This document shows positions 21,195 through 28,076 of a stretch of 64,000 nt of DNA, one piece after another; position 1 is the stretch's first letter, and each line of letters begins with the position of its first letter. This DNA comes from Eubacteriales bacterium. GTDB lineage: Bacteria > Bacillota > Clostridia > Oscillospirales > CAG-272. The DNA is taken from the NCBI GenBank assembly GCA_045596865.1, contig JAZODF010000077.1, positions 4,589-68,588 of the forward strand, given 5' to 3'. The position numbers and the translations under genes are program-made. The notes beneath the pieces were generated by a model, which did no database searches, was not told where the DNA came from, and saw only the letters and a program-made list of their open reading frames with translations.

Positions 21195-21905
21195 TCAGCC
21201 GCCGAGGTAGGCGCGCTTGATATCCTCGTCACCGAGGAGCTCCTCACCCGTGCCCGTTTTCGTCATATTTCCGATTTCGAGGACGTATGCGCGGTTGGCG
21301 ATGGATAGCGCCTTCTTCGCATTTTGCTCAACGAGGAGGACGGTGGTGCCCATATCGTTGACCTTCTTTATCATTTCGAAGATGGTATTGACGTAGAGGG
21401 GGGAGAGGCCCATGCTCGGCTCATCGAGCAGGAGAAGTCGGGGCGAGGACATCAGGGCGCGGGACATTGCGAGCATTTGCTGCTCGCCACCCGAGAGGGT
21501 GCCTGCAATCTGATTTTTACGCTCGGCAAGGATTGGGAAGTAGGAGTACATTTCATCGAGCTTGCGAAGGAACTCTGCCTTATCGCGCTTGATGTAATAG
21601 CCCATACGGAGGTTTTCGATGACCGAGAGCTCCTGGAAGATGCGGCGTCCCTCGGGGACCTGTGCCATTCCCATATAGACGAGCTTGTGCGCGGGGGTGA
21701 CCGTTACGTCGGTGCCGTCGAAGACGACGCTTCCGCCCGCCTTCGGGATTATGCCGCCGAGGGCGTGCATAATGGTGGTTTTACCCGCGCCGTTGGCGCC
21801 GATCAAGGACACGATCTCGCCCTCGTTGACAGAGAAGCTGACCCCCTTTACCGCCTTGATAAGGCCGTAGGAGACGGAGAGATTATTAACTTCAAGTAAT
21901 GCCAT
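21195..21905 (-). CDS. livF: Branched-chain amino acid ABC transporter ATP-binding protein
   Basis: GANGAGKTT, VPEGRRIF, LSGGEQQMLA and DEPSMGLSP motifs. Confidence 0.95.
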   Translation of the reverse strand: MALLEVNNLSVSYGLIKAVKGVSFSVNEGEIVSLIGANGAGKTTIMHALGGIIPKAGGSVVFDGTDVTVTPAHKLVYMGMAQVPEGRRIFQELSVIENLRMGYYIKRDKAEFLRKLDEMYSYFPILAERKNQIAGTLSGGEQQMLAMSRALMSSPRLLLLDEPSMGLSPLYVNTIFEMIKKVNDMGTTVLLVEQNAKKALSIANRAYVLEIGNMTKTGTGEELLGDEDIKRAYLGG

Positions 21906-21914
21906 ATTCCCTCC

Positions 21915-22685
21915 TTAATCGCCGAGATACGCCTTGACAACGGCGGGGTCATTCAAAACGGTATTGACGTCGCCCTCGGCGAGAGTGACGCCGAAGTTCA
22001 GCACGGTCAGGCGGTCACAGATGCCAGAGACGAGCGACATATCGTGCTCGATAAGGAGGATAGTCATATCGAAGTTATCGCGCACGAAGCGGATGGTTTC
22101 CATAAGCTCCGCCGTTTCCTGCGGGTTCATGCCCGCGGCGGGCTCATCAAGCAGGAGGAGCTTCGGCGAGGTTGCCATAGCGCGGGCAATCTCAAGGCGG
22201 CGCTGCTTGCCGTAGGGGAGATTGTAGGCGAGCTGATTGCGCTCCTCGTAGAGGCCGAAGATCTTCAGAAGCTCCTTCGCCCTTTCGCGCATTTCTCGCT
22301 CGACGCGGAAGTGACGGGGGAGGCGGAGCATGCTCTCGATTATCGAGCACTTGAACTCATCCGAGTTATGAAGGCCGACCATGACGTTACGGACGACGGT
22401 CATATTGTTGAAAAGACGGATGTTCTGGAAGGTGCGGGCGATGCCCTTGTGGTTGATCTGCTCCTGCTTTTTGCCCTTGAGCTCCTCACCGCAGAGGTAG
22501 AAGGTGCCGGTGGTAGGCTGATAGACGCCCGTGAGCATATTGAAGACGGTGGTCTTACCCGCGCCGTTAGGGCCGATGAGGCCGTAGATCTCGTTCTTTC
22601 TGATTTCGAGGTTAACGTTCTGGACAGCCTTGAGGCCGCCGAAGGAGATGCCGAGATTTTCGGTTTTTAAGACGGTTTCTTTCAT
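21915..22685 (-). CDS. livG: Branched-chain amino acid ABC transporter ATP-binding protein
   Basis: FGGLKAV, GPNGAGKTT, ARTFQNIRLF, LPYGKQRRLEIARA and DEPAAGMN motifs. Confidence 0.95.
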   Translation of the reverse strand: MKETVLKTENLGISFGGLKAVQNVNLEIRKNEIYGLIGPNGAGKTTVFNMLTGVYQPTTGTFYLCGEELKGKKQEQINHKGIARTFQNIRLFNNMTVVRNVMVGLHNSDEFKCSIIESMLRLPRHFRVEREMRERAKELLKIFGLYEERNQLAYNLPYGKQRRLEIARAMATSPKLLLLDEPAAGMNPQETAELMETIRFVRDNFDMTILLIEHDMSLVSGICDRLTVLNFGVTLAEGDVNTVLNDPAVVKAYLGD

Positions 22686-23839
22686 TTAGGTCTTTCCTCC
22701 TTATCCGGCTTCATTGTGCTTTCGGTGACGATAAGGTCGGTGGAGAGGACCTCGTCCATATCGATCTTGGTGGGAACGACGTCCCAACGGGCATCGTCAT
22801 CGCCCGCGTAGCCTGCGCCACGGCGCTTCACCATCATGCGGCGGAGGATCGCGCGGAGGTTGTACTTCTCCCTGAAGCCCTTGAGGGCGGGGGCGTTGTT
22901 GTAGATGACCATGAGGACGAGGATGAGCGAGTAGATGATGTCCTTCAGGACGGCGAGGTCGCCCGAGAGGAGGGTCTGCAGCTCGGTATTGAGGATGGTG
23001 ATAAGGGTGGCGGAGATTATCGCGCCCGTGATATTACCCATACCGCCGAGGACGACCATAACGAGCATTTCGATGGAGTAGTTATAGTCGAATATTTCGG
23101 GGCGGACGTTGAAGTTAGCGAAGCTGTAAAATACGCCCGCGACACCCGCGAAGGCGGCGGAGATGATGAAGCCGAGGAGCTTGTATTTAGTGACGTTGAT
23201 GCCCGTTGCGCGTGCGGCGATCTCGTTATCGCGGATCGCGGTGATGGCGCGGCCGTGCTTCGAGCGGATGGTGTTCTGTATCACAAAGAGGGTGATAAGA
23301 ACGAGGGTAAAGCCGATGATAAAGAGATAGTTTTTATCAAAGCGGGGGGTGCGGATGCCCATGGGGCCACCAAAGCTCTCGGGCGAGGAGTTCTGGAACA
23401 CGGTTTTGACGATTTCGCCGAAGGCGAGGGTGACGATCGCGAGGTAGTCGCCCTTCAGACGGAGGGCGGGCAGGCCGATAACGAAGCCGAAGATGCCCGC
23501 GACGATAGCGCCGACAACCGTGGAGATAAGCAGATTCAGGATGCCGTCACCGAGCGCGGTCGCGGCGAGGACGGTTGCCATTTTGCCGCCGATATACGCG
23601 CCGATGCACATAAAGCCCGCGTGGCCGAGCGACAGCTCACCAAGGAAGCCGACGACGAGCGAGAGCGACACGGCGAGGATGACGTTCAGGGTGATGTTTT
23701 CAAGCAGGTAAAGAAGCGAAGATTTCGGCGAGCCGATGAGCGTCATAAGCGTGAAGACGAGCATGGCGAGGGTGACGCCGATATAGTTGATATAGTGCTT
23801 CCATTTGACGTTTTTGAGGGTTGAGAGGATCTTCGTCAT
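22682..23839 (-). CDS. livM: Branched-chain amino acid ABC transporter permease
   Basis: GELSLGHAGF, LRLKGDYLAIVTLAFGEI and AIRDNEIAA motifs. Confidence 0.93.
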   Translation of the reverse strand: MTKILSTLKNVKWKHYINYIGVTLAMLVFTLMTLIGSPKSSLLYLLENITLNVILAVSLSLVVGFLGELSLGHAGFMCIGAYIGGKMATVLAATALGDGILNLLISTVVGAIVAGIFGFVIGLPALRLKGDYLAIVTLAFGEIVKTVFQNSSPESFGGPMGIRTPRFDKNYLFIIGFTLVLITLFVIQNTIRSKHGRAITAIRDNEIAARATGINVTKYKLLGFIISAAFAGVAGVFYSFANFNVRPEIFDYNYSIEMLVMVVLGGMGNITGAIISATLITILNTELQTLLSGDLAVLKDIIYSLILVLMVIYNNAPALKGFREKYNLRAILRRMMVKRRGAGYAGDDDARWDVVPTKIDMDEVLSTDLIVTESTMKPDKEERPK

Positions 23840-24744
23840 ACCTTTTCCCTCCTTTTCTTACCGAGGATGCCGGTGGGCTTGACGAGGAGGATGACGATGA
23901 GGATGGCAAACTCGATGGCGATGGTATAGGGTGCGACGGCGGGGATGGAGTTGCAGATGCACTCGACAACGCCGAGCAGGATACCGCCGAGCATTGCACC
24001 CGGGATGGAGCCGATACCGCCGATGACGGCGGCGGTGAATGCCTTAATACCCGGGAGGGCACCGAAGGTGGAATTCATATAGGGCACGTCAAGCAGGCTG
24101 AAAAGGCCCGCGAGCGCGGCGAGAGCCGAGCCGATGGCAAAGGTGACGGTGATTATGCGATTAATATTGATGCCCATCAGGCGGGCGGCATCGCGGTCCT
24201 CGGACACGGCGACCATTGCCCTACCCGTTTTCGAATACTTGACGAAGAGGGAGAGCGCGGTCATAATGACGACGGTCGCGACGAGGGTGATGATTGTGCT
24301 GACCTTGATCTGCAATTCGCCAAAGCGGACAACGCCAAGGCGGAACACCTCAACGACGCGGGTGTTTGCACCGAAGATGATGAGGGCAAGGCTCTGCAGC
24401 AGGTAGCTGACGCCGATGGCGGTGATAAGGACGGCGAGGGGGGATGCGCCGCGAAGTGGGCGGTAGGCAACCCTCTCCATCGTTATGCCAAGGAGGACAC
24501 AAACGACGACCGAGGTGATGATCGCGATTATGGGCATAAGGATTGCCCAGACGGGATCGGGTATGAACTGCGGCACGGAGGCGGAGACGAACACGAAGAG
24601 CGTGTAGCCGCCGACCATAATGACGTCACCGTGGGCGAAATTCAACAGCTTCGCAATGCCGTAGACCATCGTGTAGCCGAGCGCGATCATCGCGTAGACA
24701 CCACCGAGGCTAAGTCCGTTGAACAAAGTTATGATAAAATCCAT
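23836..24744 (-). CDS. livH: Branched-chain amino acid ABC transporter permease
   Basis: YAMIALGYTMVYGI, NFAHG and KAFTAAVIGGIGSIPGA motifs. ATG 24744 follows AAGGA. Confidence 0.93.
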   Translation of the reverse strand: MDFIITLFNGLSLGGVYAMIALGYTMVYGIAKLLNFAHGDVIMVGGYTLFVFVSASVPQFIPDPVWAILMPIIAIITSVVVCVLLGITMERVAYRPLRGASPLAVLITAIGVSYLLQSLALIIFGANTRVVEVFRLGVVRFGELQIKVSTIITLVATVVIMTALSLFVKYSKTGRAMVAVSEDRDAARLMGININRIITVTFAIGSALAALAGLFSLLDVPYMNSTFGALPGIKAFTAAVIGGIGSIPGAMLGGILLGVVECICNSIPAVAPYTIAIEFAILIVILLVKPTGILGKKRREKV

Positions 24745-24819
24745 AAAATTCCTTTTTCCTATTACATGACGATTTGCCGACACGGAAAATCCGCGTCAGC
24801 AAATCGGAAAATTTGTTAT

Positions 24820-26034
24820 TTATGCGCCGGTAACGCCCTTTACAGAGTAAGGAACGGCGGTCTTGTTAACGAATCCGTTATCGGTCCAGGAAATGTTGGA
24901 ATATCCGTTCGCCTCGGGTGCGCCCGTGATACCGTGGAATACGAAGGAATCGTTGTTGAACACGTCGGTGAGGATGTCGCAGAAGTCGGATGCGGAGGTG
25001 GAGGCGGAGAATTCAACGCCGTTGCTCTTCGCAAACTTCAGTGCCTCGTAGATCGCGTAAACGCAGTCATACGCGGATGCGCCAAACTGGTTGAGGGGCT
25101 CCTTTACCTCGTCGTAGGTGTCGTTGTACTTCTTGATGAAGTCGGCGGCGGCACCCTCGGTTGCCATGGAGTTGAAGTGAGAGAGATAGGAAACGGCCTG
25201 GGTGATGGAGTTGATGTCGAAGCCGTCGATAGCGTCGATACCGTCAAGACCGTCGCAGCCGAAGTAAACGGCATCAGCCTTTACGGTGTTGGCGGCCTGC
25301 ATCATGAACTGAGATGCGGGGGTGTAGTAGATGGGCATAAAGATGACGTCGCAGTCCTTCAGCTCCTGAATCTGGGAGGCGAAGTTGGTTTCCTTGCCCA
25401 TGAAGGAGGCGGTCTTTACGGTGAAGGAGGAGTCAAGGGCGGCGAGGAATTTGTCCTTGATGCCGTAGGAATACTCATCGTCGGATTTGAAGAATACGCC
25501 GACGGTCTTGCCCTTGTAGGTTTCGTTAAAGAGCTGAGCGGAGGCGGTACCCTGGTTAGAGTCAGCAAAGCACATCTGGTATGCGTTATCGTACTCGGGA
25601 ATTGCGTCGCCGGAGGCGGAGGGAGTGAGGACGAATACGTTATCATCCTTCGCGAGCTCCTTGAACTCGAGGCCGGGGGCGGTAGTAACGGTGCCAAGGG
25701 AGATCTGCATTCCGTTTTCAAACATGGTTGCATAGTTGTTGGTAACAAGGGATGCGTCGTGCTTGTCATCGGTGAACATAAGCTCGAAGGTCATGCCGAG
25801 AGGGCCGTTGCCGTCCTTCTCAATTGCGTTGATCTCATCAACGGCAATCTTTGCCGCGTTGCGGACGGCGACACCGTAAACGGCGGCGTCACCCGTAAGG
25901 GGGCCGGAGAAGCCGATCTTGACGGTATTGCCGTTATCCTGCTTGCAGGAGACCATACCGAATGCCATACATACCATCATAACGCCGACGAGGGCGACGG
26001 AGATAACCTTTTTCATAAAGTGATTGTTGCTCAT
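24820..26034 (-). CDS. Branched-chain amino acid ABC transporter substrate-binding lipoprotein (LivJ/LivK family)
   Basis: Lipobox MVSC and VKIGFSGPLTGDAAVYG motif. First structural gene of the liv operon. Confidence 0.9.
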   Translation of the reverse strand: MSNNHFMKKVISVALVGVMMVCMAFGMVSCKQDNGNTVKIGFSGPLTGDAAVYGVAVRNAAKIAVDEINAIEKDGNGPLGMTFELMFTDDKHDASLVTNNYATMFENGMQISLGTVTTAPGLEFKELAKDDNVFVLTPSASGDAIPEYDNAYQMCFADSNQGTASAQLFNETYKGKTVGVFFKSDDEYSYGIKDKFLAALDSSFTVKTASFMGKETNFASQIQELKDCDVIFMPIYYTPASQFMMQAANTVKADAVYFGCDGLDGIDAIDGFDINSITQAVSYLSHFNSMATEGAAADFIKKYNDTYDEVKEPLNQFGASAYDCVYAIYEALKFAKSNGVEFSASTSASDFCDILTDVFNNDSFVFHGITGAPEANGYSNISWTDNGFVNKTAVPYSVKGVTGA

Positions 26035-26122
26035 TTTTATTTACCTCATTAATTATTTTTAGTTTGGAAGGAAAACGTGGGGCAGTGCCCCGTTGCCGCC
26101 GTTCTTCGGCACGCGGCAAAAT

Positions 26123-26157
26123 AAAAAAGCGGCCTACCCGTGTAACAAGTAGCCGCT
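26123..26157 (-). terminator. Attenuator-type intrinsic terminator in the liv leader
   Basis: Minus strand AGCGGCTACTTG-TTACA-CGGGTAGGCCGCT followed by a T run, between the promoter and the first gene. Confidence 0.75.
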
Positions 26158-26184
26158 AAATAATTCGACTGTCAAGCGGTCGAA

Positions 26185-26286
26185 TCATAGTCGAGGTGCC
26201 TCGTAAATGCACGGATTATTTTTCACCATATTCACAAGCAAAATCACGGGTATAGGTAGCGAAATATTAATTAGATTCGATAGCAT
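26185..26286 (-). CDS. Putative Leu/Ile/Val-rich leader peptide MLSNLINISLPIPVILLVNMVKNNPCIYEAPRL
   Basis: RBS AGGGAGAGGA-AATA-ATG. 14 of 33 codons are L/I/V. Ends 27 nt before the terminator stem. Confidence 0.7.
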   Translation of the reverse strand: MLSNLINISLPIPVILLVNMVKNNPCIYEAPRL

Positions 26287-26327
26287 TATTTCCTCTCCCT
26301 TCTGCTTTAGTGGTGAAACATGCTCAA

Positions 26328-26356
26328 ATTATACTACTTTAATACCCTTTTGTCAA
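26328..26356 (-). promoter_or_regulatory. sigmaA promoter of the liv operon
   Basis: Consensus TTGACA-N17-TATAAT on the minus strand. Confidence 0.85.
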
Positions 26357-26560
26357 CAGTTTTAATTATGACATTTTCTAATACCCTCTTGGAGGTTATT
26401 TATATGTGAAAAATATATGGGCATTGTTTACATTTTGCGCGGTGTTTCCCCTTTCCTTTTTGGCAATATTCACCCGTTTTTGTTGACTACTCCAAGGGGC
26501 GTGTTACGCGAATTAATAATTATTAAGAATTGTAAATAACTATTTTCGCGGTAGCATACG

Positions 26561-27015
26561 TCAAGAGAACAAAAAACAGGGCGGACCGAGGTCCGCCCTG
26601 TGAAATTATTAATTATCGAATCATCGAACTCGAAGGAAATTTCGAGCAGAAATTGGTGTTCTTCACCCCGTCCGCCGTTGTTACCTACGGCAAGGGGAAA
26701 CCCAACCCAACTCGAAGGAAATTTTGATGGAGTTGGCGGAAATGCGACCCGTCAGCCGTATCAAGACAACAAAAAGCAGGGCGGACCGAAGTCCGCCCTG
26801 TGAAATTATTAATTATCTAATCATCGAACTCGAAGGAAATTTCGAGCAGAAATTGGTGTTCTTCACCCCGTCCGCCGTAGTTACCTACGGAAAGGGGAAA
26901 CCCAACCCAACTCGAAGTAAATTTCGATGGAGTTGGTGGAAATGCGACCCGTCAGCCGTAGTTACCTACGGCAAGGGGAGCAGTTGCGACAAATCCGCGA
27001 AATTTACGAAGAGTT
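26561..27015. repeat. Nested tandem repeat: two 200-bp units (26561-26760, 26761-26960) containing ~81-bp hairpin subunits
   Basis: Manual alignment gives 9 mismatches in 200 bp. Core GCCGTAG-TTAC-CTACGGC occurs three times plus one truncated copy. AACTCGAAGKAAATTTYGA occurs four times. Confidence 0.9.
26571..26600 (-). terminator. Intrinsic terminator of the sugar ABC operon (second copy at about 26771-26800)
   Basis: Minus strand CAGGGCGGAC-CTCG-GTCCGCCCTG-TTTTTT. Confidence 0.75.
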
Positions 27016-28076
27016 TAGCCGACGAGACCCGAACGCTCGATACCCTGTACCAGGTAGCGCTGGCAGAAGAGGTACAGAATGATCAGGGGAGCGATGATAA
27101 GCATACCGCCCGTGTTGGTGACGACGTTCTCGTAGAGGGCGGTGCCCGCATACTCGACGCGCAGAGGCTTCGGAACCTTATAGACGTCGGGCATGAGGTA
27201 GACCTTGTTAATCTCACCGTCGTAGAAGAAGAGCGAGGTGTAGAATTCGTCGGTCCACTGCCAGGAGAAGGAGAACAGGAACACCGTGATCATCATAGGT
27301 ACGGCGAGAGGAAGGATAATCTGGAAGAAGGTGCGGAAGAAGCCCGAGCCGTCAACGTATGCAGACTCCTCCAACTCGTCGGGGACGCCCTTGAAGAACT
27401 GACGCATCAGGTAGATGTAGAGTCCGTTCTTAAACGCGAGACCGAATACGGAAAGGATGATCAGGGGGGCGAAGGTGTTAACGAGCTGGAGGGGCTGACC
27501 CGTTATGAGCTCGATAATACCGGGGTAATCCCAGGAGATTACGGTGGCAAGGTCGAAGGAGGTGAAGTGCTTACCAAGCGAGAGCTTCAGAGCGCCGTGG
27601 GGGATAACCATCGTTACAACGACGAGGCCCATCAGGAGCTTATTACCCTTGAACTTAAACTTTGCAAGACCGTAGCCGACGAGGCAGGAGACGATCATCT
27701 GAATAAGTGCGCAGGCAAGAGAGAGAAGAAGCGTGTTGATAAGTGCCTCGAAATAATGGTTTTCGACGATTAGCGCCTTGTAAATCTCGAGGGTGGGATG
27801 CTTGGGTATCAGAGAAATGGTGGAGTCGATGACGTCCTCCTTCGTCATGAAGGAGCCCGCGATACGGGCGATGAAGGGGTAAATGATGACGAAGGACACG
27901 CCGAGCATGATGAGGAAGCGGAATACCGACACAGCGGCGGTAACCCAGGTGTTGGATGCGCGCAGCTTGTGCATGAGGCGTTCCTTAAAGGTGAGCTTGC
28001 CTTCATAGTCAACGCGGATCTTGTTCTTGGTTTCCTTGGTTACAAGCGGGGTCGCCTGATTATTAGTTGAATCCAT
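27015..28076 (-). CDS. Carbohydrate ABC transporter permease (MalG-like)
   Basis: RQFFKGVPDELEESAYVDG EAA loop and QRYLVQGIERSGLVG. GGAGG RBS before ATG 28076. Confidence 0.9.
   Translation of the reverse strand: MDSTNNQATPLVTKETKNKIRVDYEGKLTFKERLMHKLRASNTWVTAAVSVFRFLIMLGVSFVIIYPFIARIAGSFMTKEDVIDSTISLIPKHPTLEIYKALIVENHYFEALINTLLLSLACALIQMIVSCLVGYGLAKFKFKGNKLLMGLVVVTMVIPHGALKLSLGKHFTSFDLATVISWDYPGIIELITGQPLQLVNTFAPLIILSVFGLAFKNGLYIYLMRQFFKGVPDELEESAYVDGSGFFRTFFQIILPLAVPMMITVFLFSFSWQWTDEFYTSLFFYDGEINKVYLMPDVYKVPKPLRVEYAGTALYENVVTNTGGMLIIAPLIILYLFCQRYLVQGIERSGLVG

Follow-up and report, generated by a model that had tools for sequence, protein, structure and literature searches.

A putative ribosome-dependent attenuator in the leader of a Liv-like importer operon from an uncultured Oscillospirales bacterium

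The element considered here lies on the minus strand of a 64,000-nucleotide (nt) stretch of contig JAZODF010000077.1 (GenBank assembly GCA_045596865.1), hereafter the window, directly upstream of livJ, the first gene of an operon resembling the Liv importers of branched-chain amino acids. The stretch 26356-26036 is best explained as the transcribed leader of this Liv-type importer operon acting as a ribosome-dependent transcription attenuator, a reading to which we give a probability of about 0.58. The design of this leader recurs in related genomes, and ribosome stalling therefore probably switches the importer on when leucine, isoleucine or valine (Leu/Ile/Val) is short. An initial annotation of the window had proposed that a Leu/Ile/Val leader peptide followed by a terminator attenuates the liv genes. 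What it observed is confirmed, as the promoter, ribosome-binding site, 33-codon upstream open reading frame (uORF), hairpin, terminator and liv-like operon are all present on the minus strand at the coordinates given below, and its interpretation is partly supported.

The leader contains the following elements, in the order in which they are transcribed:

26291-26300, minus strand: purine-rich ribosome-binding site of uORF1, AGGGAGAGGA, read from the sequence
26185-26286, minus strand: uORF1, 33 codons, with a Leu/Ile/Val-rich run in codons 2-21 (26283-26224), from translation
26200-26204, minus strand: 5' strand of the antiterminator helix P1, in codons 28-29 of uORF1, doubling as a Shine-Dalgarno (SD)-like element for uORF2, from pair tables
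26156-26188, minus strand: uORF2, ten codons plus stop, its ATG overlapping the uORF1 stop codon (ATGA), from translation
26160-26188, minus strand: hairpin H, arms 26188-26179 and 26169-26160, enclosing uORF2, from folding and pair tables
26155-26168, minus strand: invariant 14-nt block linking hairpin H to the terminator, from genus comparison
26118-26157, minus strand: intrinsic terminator T, stem 26157-26128 followed by a T-run, from folding
26094-26117, minus strand: hairpin X, with the invariant 8-nt loop GCCGAAGA, between the terminator and livJ, from genus comparison

In the proposed mechanism, scarcity of charged Leu, Ile or Val tRNA would cause the leading ribosome to stall in the Leu/Ile/Val run of uORF1, leaving helix P1 in the 3' part of uORF1 and hairpin H free to fold as an antiterminator behind the polymerase. 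Together, P1 and H would occupy the 5' arm of the terminator, permitting readthrough into livJ. With a good supply, the ribosome would translate through the P1 strand, pass via the ATGA overlap into uORF2 and melt hairpin H, upon which the terminator would form and transcription would stop. The direction of the response, its amino-acid specificity, the sensing of all three amino acids and the coupling to their supply are inferred parts of this scheme.

A search with the binding protein returned orthologues in 18 of 61 genomes, and livJ leaders were seen by reading to be of two kinds: short ones without a frame, and long ones in which an SD-led frame precedes a terminator. Upstream sequence was at hand for 25 loci of public genomes, which divided, again by reading, into 16 of the long and nine of the short kind. 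In all, 25 long leaders were picked by reading, of which L067 has no usable livJ start; the other 24 were re-analysed from their coordinates. An SD-led frame of 29-100 codons is present in 23 of these 24 leaders, the exception being L066, and it ends 0-35 nt before the terminator or overlaps the terminator's first bases. The SD-like motif stands at the same distance from the start in 23/23 related uORFs, although possession of an SD was itself a selection criterion for them. The components of the attenuator as first proposed, namely the uORF, its Leu/Ile/Val richness and the terminator, recur before livJ orthologues despite strong sequence drift, in leaders that are either homologous or analogous to that of the window.

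Within the 22 codons following the start or the internal hairpin, Leu/Ile/Val make up at least 32% in 20 of the 23 frames, with a mean of 43%, compared to 28% and 11% for the other two frames of the same nucleotides and 23.7% for the proteins of the window's genome. The exceptions are L070, L005 and L015; for L070 the wrong segment was used, as its internal hairpin was missed by the scan. Furthermore, for most frames of 60-100 codons only 0.5-5% of shuffles leave the frame open, and the other two frames of the same long stretches contain 0-8 stop codons each.

The encoded peptides, by comparison, are barely constrained. Over 12 pairs, the ratio of nonsynonymous to synonymous divergence (dN/dS) is 0.25-1.28 for the uORF against 0.03-0.22 for livJ, and differences between uORFs are spread evenly over the codon positions (14, 17 and 16 for the window against L022), whereas livJ displays a strong excess at the third position. 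Homologous uORFs of uORF1 are found in L020 and L022. Ten uORF peptides searched against Pfam and NCBIfam families yielded sub-threshold noise only, and one 100-residue relative gave no usable match in the ESM Atlas. The peptide thus appears to evolve almost without amino-acid constraint, as would be expected of a regulatory leader peptide. In several pairs, the synonymous divergence of the uORF is lower than that of livJ, which points to a constraint on the RNA.

A terminator-like hairpin lies inside the frame in 17 of the 23 uORFs. An in-frame hairpin with a T-run was seen in L023-L025, L027, L031, L056, L062-L064, L068, L069, L071, L075, L076 and L008, its arms covarying from genome to genome. 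A further hairpin upstream might, in some leaders, combine with the in-frame hairpin into a 1:2 / 2:3 / 3:4 set; the window is without this in-frame stage.

In the window itself, 11 of codons 2-18 of uORF1 are Leu, Ile or Val, as counted in the initial annotation, and these residues occupy 55% of the 22 codons after the start, against the 23.7% found genome-wide. The four CTA codons that the annotation had singled out as rare are four of six Leu codons; over 947 long open reading frames of the window's genome, CTA accounts for 2% of Leu codons (1.9 per 1000), so that the rarity is borne out. The preferred Ile codon, ATC (62% of the Ile codons in the same 947 frames), is used at none of the five Ile positions. 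The Leu/Ile/Val run further holds three asparagines, two prolines and two serines, and contains no alanine, glycine or phenylalanine.

The second frame, uORF2, and the elements around it are shared by a group of eight genomes. Of the 213 genomes of the genus, eight carry the 14-nt block ahead of livJ (G000, which is the genome of the window, and G022, G098, G120, G134, G197, G226 and G235), and in 8/8 of these block-bearing leaders the frame, the length and the last three codons of uORF2 are identical. The frame ends in Arg-Ile-Ile-stop, with the stop codon forming the first triplet at the foot of the terminator. In three of the eight leaders uORF2 is fused to uORF1, and in the remaining five it is separate, overlapping or abutting the uORF1 stop. 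By reading, the SD-like purine run 7-10 nt before the uORF2 ATG is the P1 strand, and hairpin H follows directly behind the uORF1 stop codon. The block is unchanged in L056, L023 and L022 though the partner arm of hairpin H is mutated there, and the single substitution in the block among the eight genomes is synonymous in the uORF2 frame. These eight, partly related sequences do not allow coding constraint on uORF2 and the block to be told apart from RNA constraint; under either, the model would have a ribosome that finishes uORF1 move on across hairpin H as far as the terminator's foot.

The block was looked for in several scans. Among 401 genomes spread over the family, the block was found in the window itself and in one other match. 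A scan of the 213 genus genomes allowing up to one mismatch, with a reversed-pattern control, gave nine exact places, eight before livJ and the ninth (G088) inside a coding sequence, and one-mismatch places in these genomes were about as frequent as with the reversed pattern. Apart from the exact places, all those inspected (30 search loci and 14 fetched regions) proved to be unrelated. In addition, a metagenome scan for the block, the gap and the start of the T-run returned 32 places, none of which adjoins a livJ-like gene. Downstream of the terminator, whose stem energy is -14.6 to -16.2 kcal/mol, hairpin X is present in 8/8 block-bearing leaders and in 0/16 other leaders; its loop is invariant, while its stems covary and are wholly different between genomes.

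The antiterminator of the model is helix P1, which in the window consists of five contiguous pairs (26204-26200 with 26149-26145). The helix occurs in three registers, with nine contiguous pairs in L022, six plus two in L020 and five in the window. The eight block-bearing leaders align gaplessly from the antiterminator strand to the block, and the pair tables were built on gapless 118-nt frames, as MAFFT inserted gaps in the leader alignment. Compensatory double changes in P1 number two between the window and L022 and two between L025 and L056, and the latter involve terminator-loop bases that play no part in the terminator as such. It thus seems that P1 is under selection in the group, yet it is weak in the window. 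More broadly, when the best duplex of the terminator 5' arm plus loop with the 90 nt upstream was compared with 200 shuffles in each of 22 leaders, at most 5 of 200 shuffles did as well in nine leaders and 9-23 of 200 in five more.

P1 differs from the alternative pairings put forward in the initial annotation, which are not conserved. The strongest of these, between codons 9-15 of uORF1 and the 3' side of the terminator, does exist in the window at -17.7 kcal/mol, but 17 of 300 shuffles match it and it is absent from 11/11 related leaders; this long-range helix was left out of the model for want of a counterpart in those leaders. A 5-bp pairing with the hairpin loop, likewise proposed initially, crosses hairpin H and by reading is not conserved.

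Folding with constraints on ribosome position, which had been suggested as a check on the attenuator, gave a divided result. Minimum-energy folds were computed with the ribosome modelled as a 30-nt mask. With the ribosome upstream, the terminator 5' arm is pre-paired over 0.5-0.9 of its bases, and with the ribosome in the last 8-12 codons this pre-pairing is lost, both in 8/8 leaders folded and by a measure that carries no shuffle control. A modelled ribosome on the last 4-5 codons abolishes the terminator in the three fused leaders L020, L025 and L027. When the terminator 3' arm of the window is held open, the alternative fold reaches -17.2 kcal/mol, mostly from hairpin H, against -30.0 kcal/mol for the terminated fold.

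Contigs covering the leader come from two bovine-gut metatranscriptome samples of one study; stretches that lack contig cover in the four runs are given no weight. A 253-nt RNA contig (26291-26039) bridges the terminator, and a 160-nt contig (26290-26131) from one run, at a depth of 2.8, stops inside the terminator 3' arm, which is a weak hint at termination at most. RNA contigs of two samples carry a G>A change at position 26250 (plus strand), which converts codon 13 of uORF1 from proline to serine and turns one G-C pair of the long-range helix of the initial annotation into G-U.

Several points weigh against the attenuator reading. The leader has 38% G+C in a genome of 55%, and rare codons are therefore expected from composition alone; moreover, the uORF1 frame of the window stays open by itself in 8.8% of dinucleotide shuffles. 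On both counts, the window's leader taken alone is suggestive and not conclusive. The 23 comparison leaders were hand-picked and are biased and, being kin, non-independent. In the duplex test, at least 59 of 200 shuffles did as well in 8 of the 22 leaders, including the window (168) and L020 (147), and the upstream strand of the clear duplexes falls within the final 15 codons of the frame, past the Leu/Ile/Val run, a position that is partly given by construction as the search range largely coincides with the 3' part of the uORF. The minimum-energy fold of the window keeps the terminator with the modelled ribosome at every codon. In three of the eight block-bearing leaders the frame reaches the foot of the terminator, where a ribosome could block it rather than permit it, so that the response may have the opposite sign. 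Furthermore, the longer relatives of 90-100 codons look like two-helix membrane peptides, and the RNA contigs have a depth of 2-3, come from one study and may reflect DNA carry-over.

The main alternative to the stalling model is that the ribosome acts by occlusion, which we regard as unlikely. A ribosome on the Arg-Ile-Ile-stop of uORF2, lying against the 5' arm of the terminator, would physically prevent the hairpin, and uORF1 would mainly serve to deliver ribosomes. The ribosome would be held there by Ile shortage at the tandem Ile codons or by slow release at the stop codon, so that readthrough would need translation up to the foot of the terminator, as in a pyrBI-type attenuator. The constancy of uORF2 in length and in its last three codons throughout the group, including the three fused cases, fits such a role, as do the invariance of the block opposite a mutated arm of hairpin H in L056, L023 and L022, the synonymous nature of its sole change and the loss of the terminator under modelled ribosomes on the last 4-5 codons in L020, L025 and L027. 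Occlusion requires a ribosome within about 15 nt of the polymerase, however, and in leaders outside the group the uORF stops 15-35 nt short of the terminator and its last codons are not Ile-Ile. The constant length and open frame of uORF2 are equally explicable by the constraints of hairpin H, and only eight sequences are at hand, some of them closely related.

The remaining explanations rank lower than occlusion. That uORF1 is a genuine gene for a small hydrophobic peptide, for example a KdpF-like, membrane-embedded accessory of the transporter, followed by a leaky terminator with constitutive partial readthrough into livJ, has a small chance of being right. Its strong ribosome-binding site and the hydrophobic character of the peptides, with 30-40 consecutive hydrophobic residues in the relatives of 90-100 codons, would agree with this. 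A transmembrane helix was judged from composition alone, by which some relatives are helix-like and others hold up to 27% charged residues; such charged runs occur in group 2, and the run of the window has the asparagine, proline and serine content given above and lacks alanine, glycine and phenylalanine. The dN/dS values and the missing third-position excess speak against purifying selection on the peptide, its length ranges from 29 to 100 codons, most of the uORFs (17/23) carry a terminator-like hairpin within the frame, and no family was found for it in Pfam, NCBIfam or the ESM Atlas. A protein or small ligand that binds the 14-nt block, the loop of hairpin X or both to control the terminator, leaving the uORF without a sensing role, is about equally improbable. 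Two invariant single-stranded or loop elements amid drifting sequence and the weak antiterminator of the window would suit it, but no Rfam family was matched, the invariant elements are confined to eight genomes of one genus while the design of uORF and terminator is much wider, and the maintained frames and their Leu/Ile/Val richness would be left unexplained. Control by a T-box or another known riboswitch can practically be dismissed. Nothing in the leader speaks for it, although the genome does use T-boxes elsewhere (five matches, one of them over the gathering score); a permissive scan of 25000-27500 with Rfam 15 (E up to 10) gave no T-box or other family within 26036-26400, in line with the initial annotation, and the T-box is refuted at the sensitivity of that release.

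The genes downstream of the attenuator and the signals upstream of it are as follows:

21195-26034, minus strand: five-gene operon with a livJ-like binding protein (26034-24820) and then livH-, livM-, livG- and livF-like genes, from Pfam families
26328-26356, minus strand: sigma-70-type promoter, -35 box at 26356-26351 and -10 box at 26333-26328, from consensus match
26367-26385, minus strand: palindromic operator GGTATKA-N7-TMATA, some 10 nt before the -35 box, from in-register conservation

By Pfam, the operon starting at 26034 encodes a Peripla_BP_6 binding protein, two BPD_transp_2 permeases and two ATP-binding cassette (ABC) ATPases. In NCBIfam, each of the five proteins takes a Liv name as its best match, with a score below the curated cut-off (57.7 against 477 bits for LivJ). 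The operon is therefore called Liv-like and its substrate is treated as putative; the Pfam families fit a Liv-I importer of branched-chain amino acids.

The promoter (TTGACA-17-TATAAT) matches the consensus at 12 of 12 positions with a spacer of 17 nt, from which we infer a transcription start near 26321. No second promoter-like site was found in 25500-27200, and hence none between uORF1 and livJ. In a search of the genus with the leader DNA, the promoter is the best conserved part: 45 of the 213 genomes match, mostly over the promoter and the palindrome just upstream. The bases that follow the -10 box (26321-26327, minus strand) form a GAGCAT-like motif and then a T-rich stretch, which are kept across many promoters of the genus (L020-L047).

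The palindrome is kept in register in some 20 promoters of the genus and is likely a transcription-factor site. Exactly two copies exist in the window's genome, the one before the liv-like operon and one at L160:1501-1519 (contig C25), which precedes a lipoprotein with a near-threshold match to SBP_bac_5 (31.2 against 32.4 bits). Together, the two sites suggest a shared transcription factor for amino-acid and peptide uptake, and the promoter of the liv-like operon probably carries a second, protein-mediated control via this operator. In two other genomes of the genus (L032 and L034), livJ is replaced behind the same operator and promoter by a gene for a secreted protein that holds many Cys-containing repeats, with a long leader without an obvious uORF between promoter and gene. 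Further upstream in the window, at 26561-26960, lies a 200-nt tandem duplication in two copies that are 96% identical, each closed by a strong, GC-rich hairpin of the terminator type after the upstream permease gene; the plus strand shows a weak match to the ylbH leader that stays below threshold, at 26.9 bits where the gathering score is 50.

The genome of the window, G000, is a 1.99-Mb assembly that is 80.6% complete, and the public genomes closest to it come from uncultured Clostridia, Eubacteriales or Oscillospiraceae of animal and human guts. IlvD (PF00920), IlvC (PF01450) and CodY (PF06018) were not found in it, an absence that the incompleteness of the assembly leaves unproven; in control genomes, the IlvD and IlvC families were found in 14/14 and CodY in 2/14. 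The organism may thus be unable to make Leu, Ile and Val, a context that would suit the attenuator reading, and the pair of palindromes may mark an uptake regulon for amino acids and peptides in this genome, in which no CodY family was detected.

A broader proposal can be put forward tentatively, as it is in our estimate somewhat more likely to be wrong than right. The translated leaders of uncultured gut Oscillospirales would, throughout the lineage, be two-stage ribosome-dependent attenuators of Liv-type importers that stand in for CodY and T-box control where CodY and the ilv pathway appear to be absent. The first stage would be a Leu/Ile/Val-rich uORF, long or short, often with a first terminator inside the frame, and in the second a coupled mini-ORF would bring the ribosome to rest on Ile-Ile-stop, at the second terminator's foot. 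If true, no leader-peptide attenuation of an ABC importer for branched-chain amino acids would have been described before. Should the attenuator of the liv-like operon itself be confirmed, it would explain how gut anaerobes that are abundant yet uncultured adjust the uptake of Leu, Ile and Val to tRNA charging, and it would offer a compact natural part for amino-acid-responsive gene control. Terminators within the frame and a mini-ORF set against a terminator also bear on the distance between ribosome and polymerase in Firmicutes.

Leader-peptide attenuation is a textbook mechanism for amino-acid biosynthesis. An older comparative study of proteobacterial attenuators reportedly predicted leader-peptide control of some histidine transporters as well, and the principle of transporter control by a leader peptide is therefore not new. 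What sets the present case apart is the gene class, an importer, together with the lineage and the architecture, that is, the mini-ORF at the foot of the terminator and the in-frame hairpins of the relatives. Also new are hairpin X with its invariant loop and the conserved palindromic operator upstream of the -35 box. For Bacillota, leader-peptide attenuation is on record in only a few ilv-leu and his cases: ribosome-mediated attenuation of the ilv-leu operons is described for Staphylococcus aureus and Listeria (PMC6123439), and regular leader peptides are proposed for hisS and hisZ of Firmicutes (PMC2965389). A full-text search gave no report of leader-peptide control of a Liv-type importer or in Clostridia, with most subscription journals lying outside its reach and the attenuator candidates ahead of ABC transporters in the supplement of PMC2965389 possibly bearing on the matter.

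Among known systems with a comparable function, T-box leaders (RF00230) read tRNA charging in Bacillota for amino-acid genes, transporters included. They share the task of the leader described here, which has neither the fold nor the sequence of a T-box. In pyrBI of Escherichia coli, the signal is the pausing of the polymerase at low UTP. The resemblance lies in a frame that reaches the terminator, so that a close ribosome can hinder the hairpin; the frame found here differs in being rich in Leu/Ile/Val. In Firmicutes, uORF attenuators that detect antibiotics (bmrB-bmrCD, vmlR) respond to ribosomes stalled by the drug and stand ahead of resistance genes. They likewise have longer uORFs, and the state of translation decides between terminator and antiterminator, but the downstream genes in the present case encode an amino-acid importer.

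The closest parallels are ilvL, ivbL and leuL of E. coli and the ilv-leu leaders of S. aureus and Listeria monocytogenes, which likewise place a short SD-led Leu/Ile/Val frame before an intrinsic terminator, with a competing fold, here a putative one, drawn from the frame's 3' part. The likeness is one of design; no sequence similarity was seen, and none was looked for. The size and the share of Leu/Ile/Val are similar to those of the E. coli peptides, which, according to PMC6123439, have 32 residues, 15 or 11 of them Leu/Ile/Val. Unlike these leaders, the present one precedes an importer operon and not a biosynthetic one, belongs to an uncultured member of the Oscillospirales and has a weak antiterminator in the window. 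It is further set apart by the coupled mini-ORF at the foot of the terminator and by relatives in which frames of 60-100 codons enclose a terminator-like hairpin.

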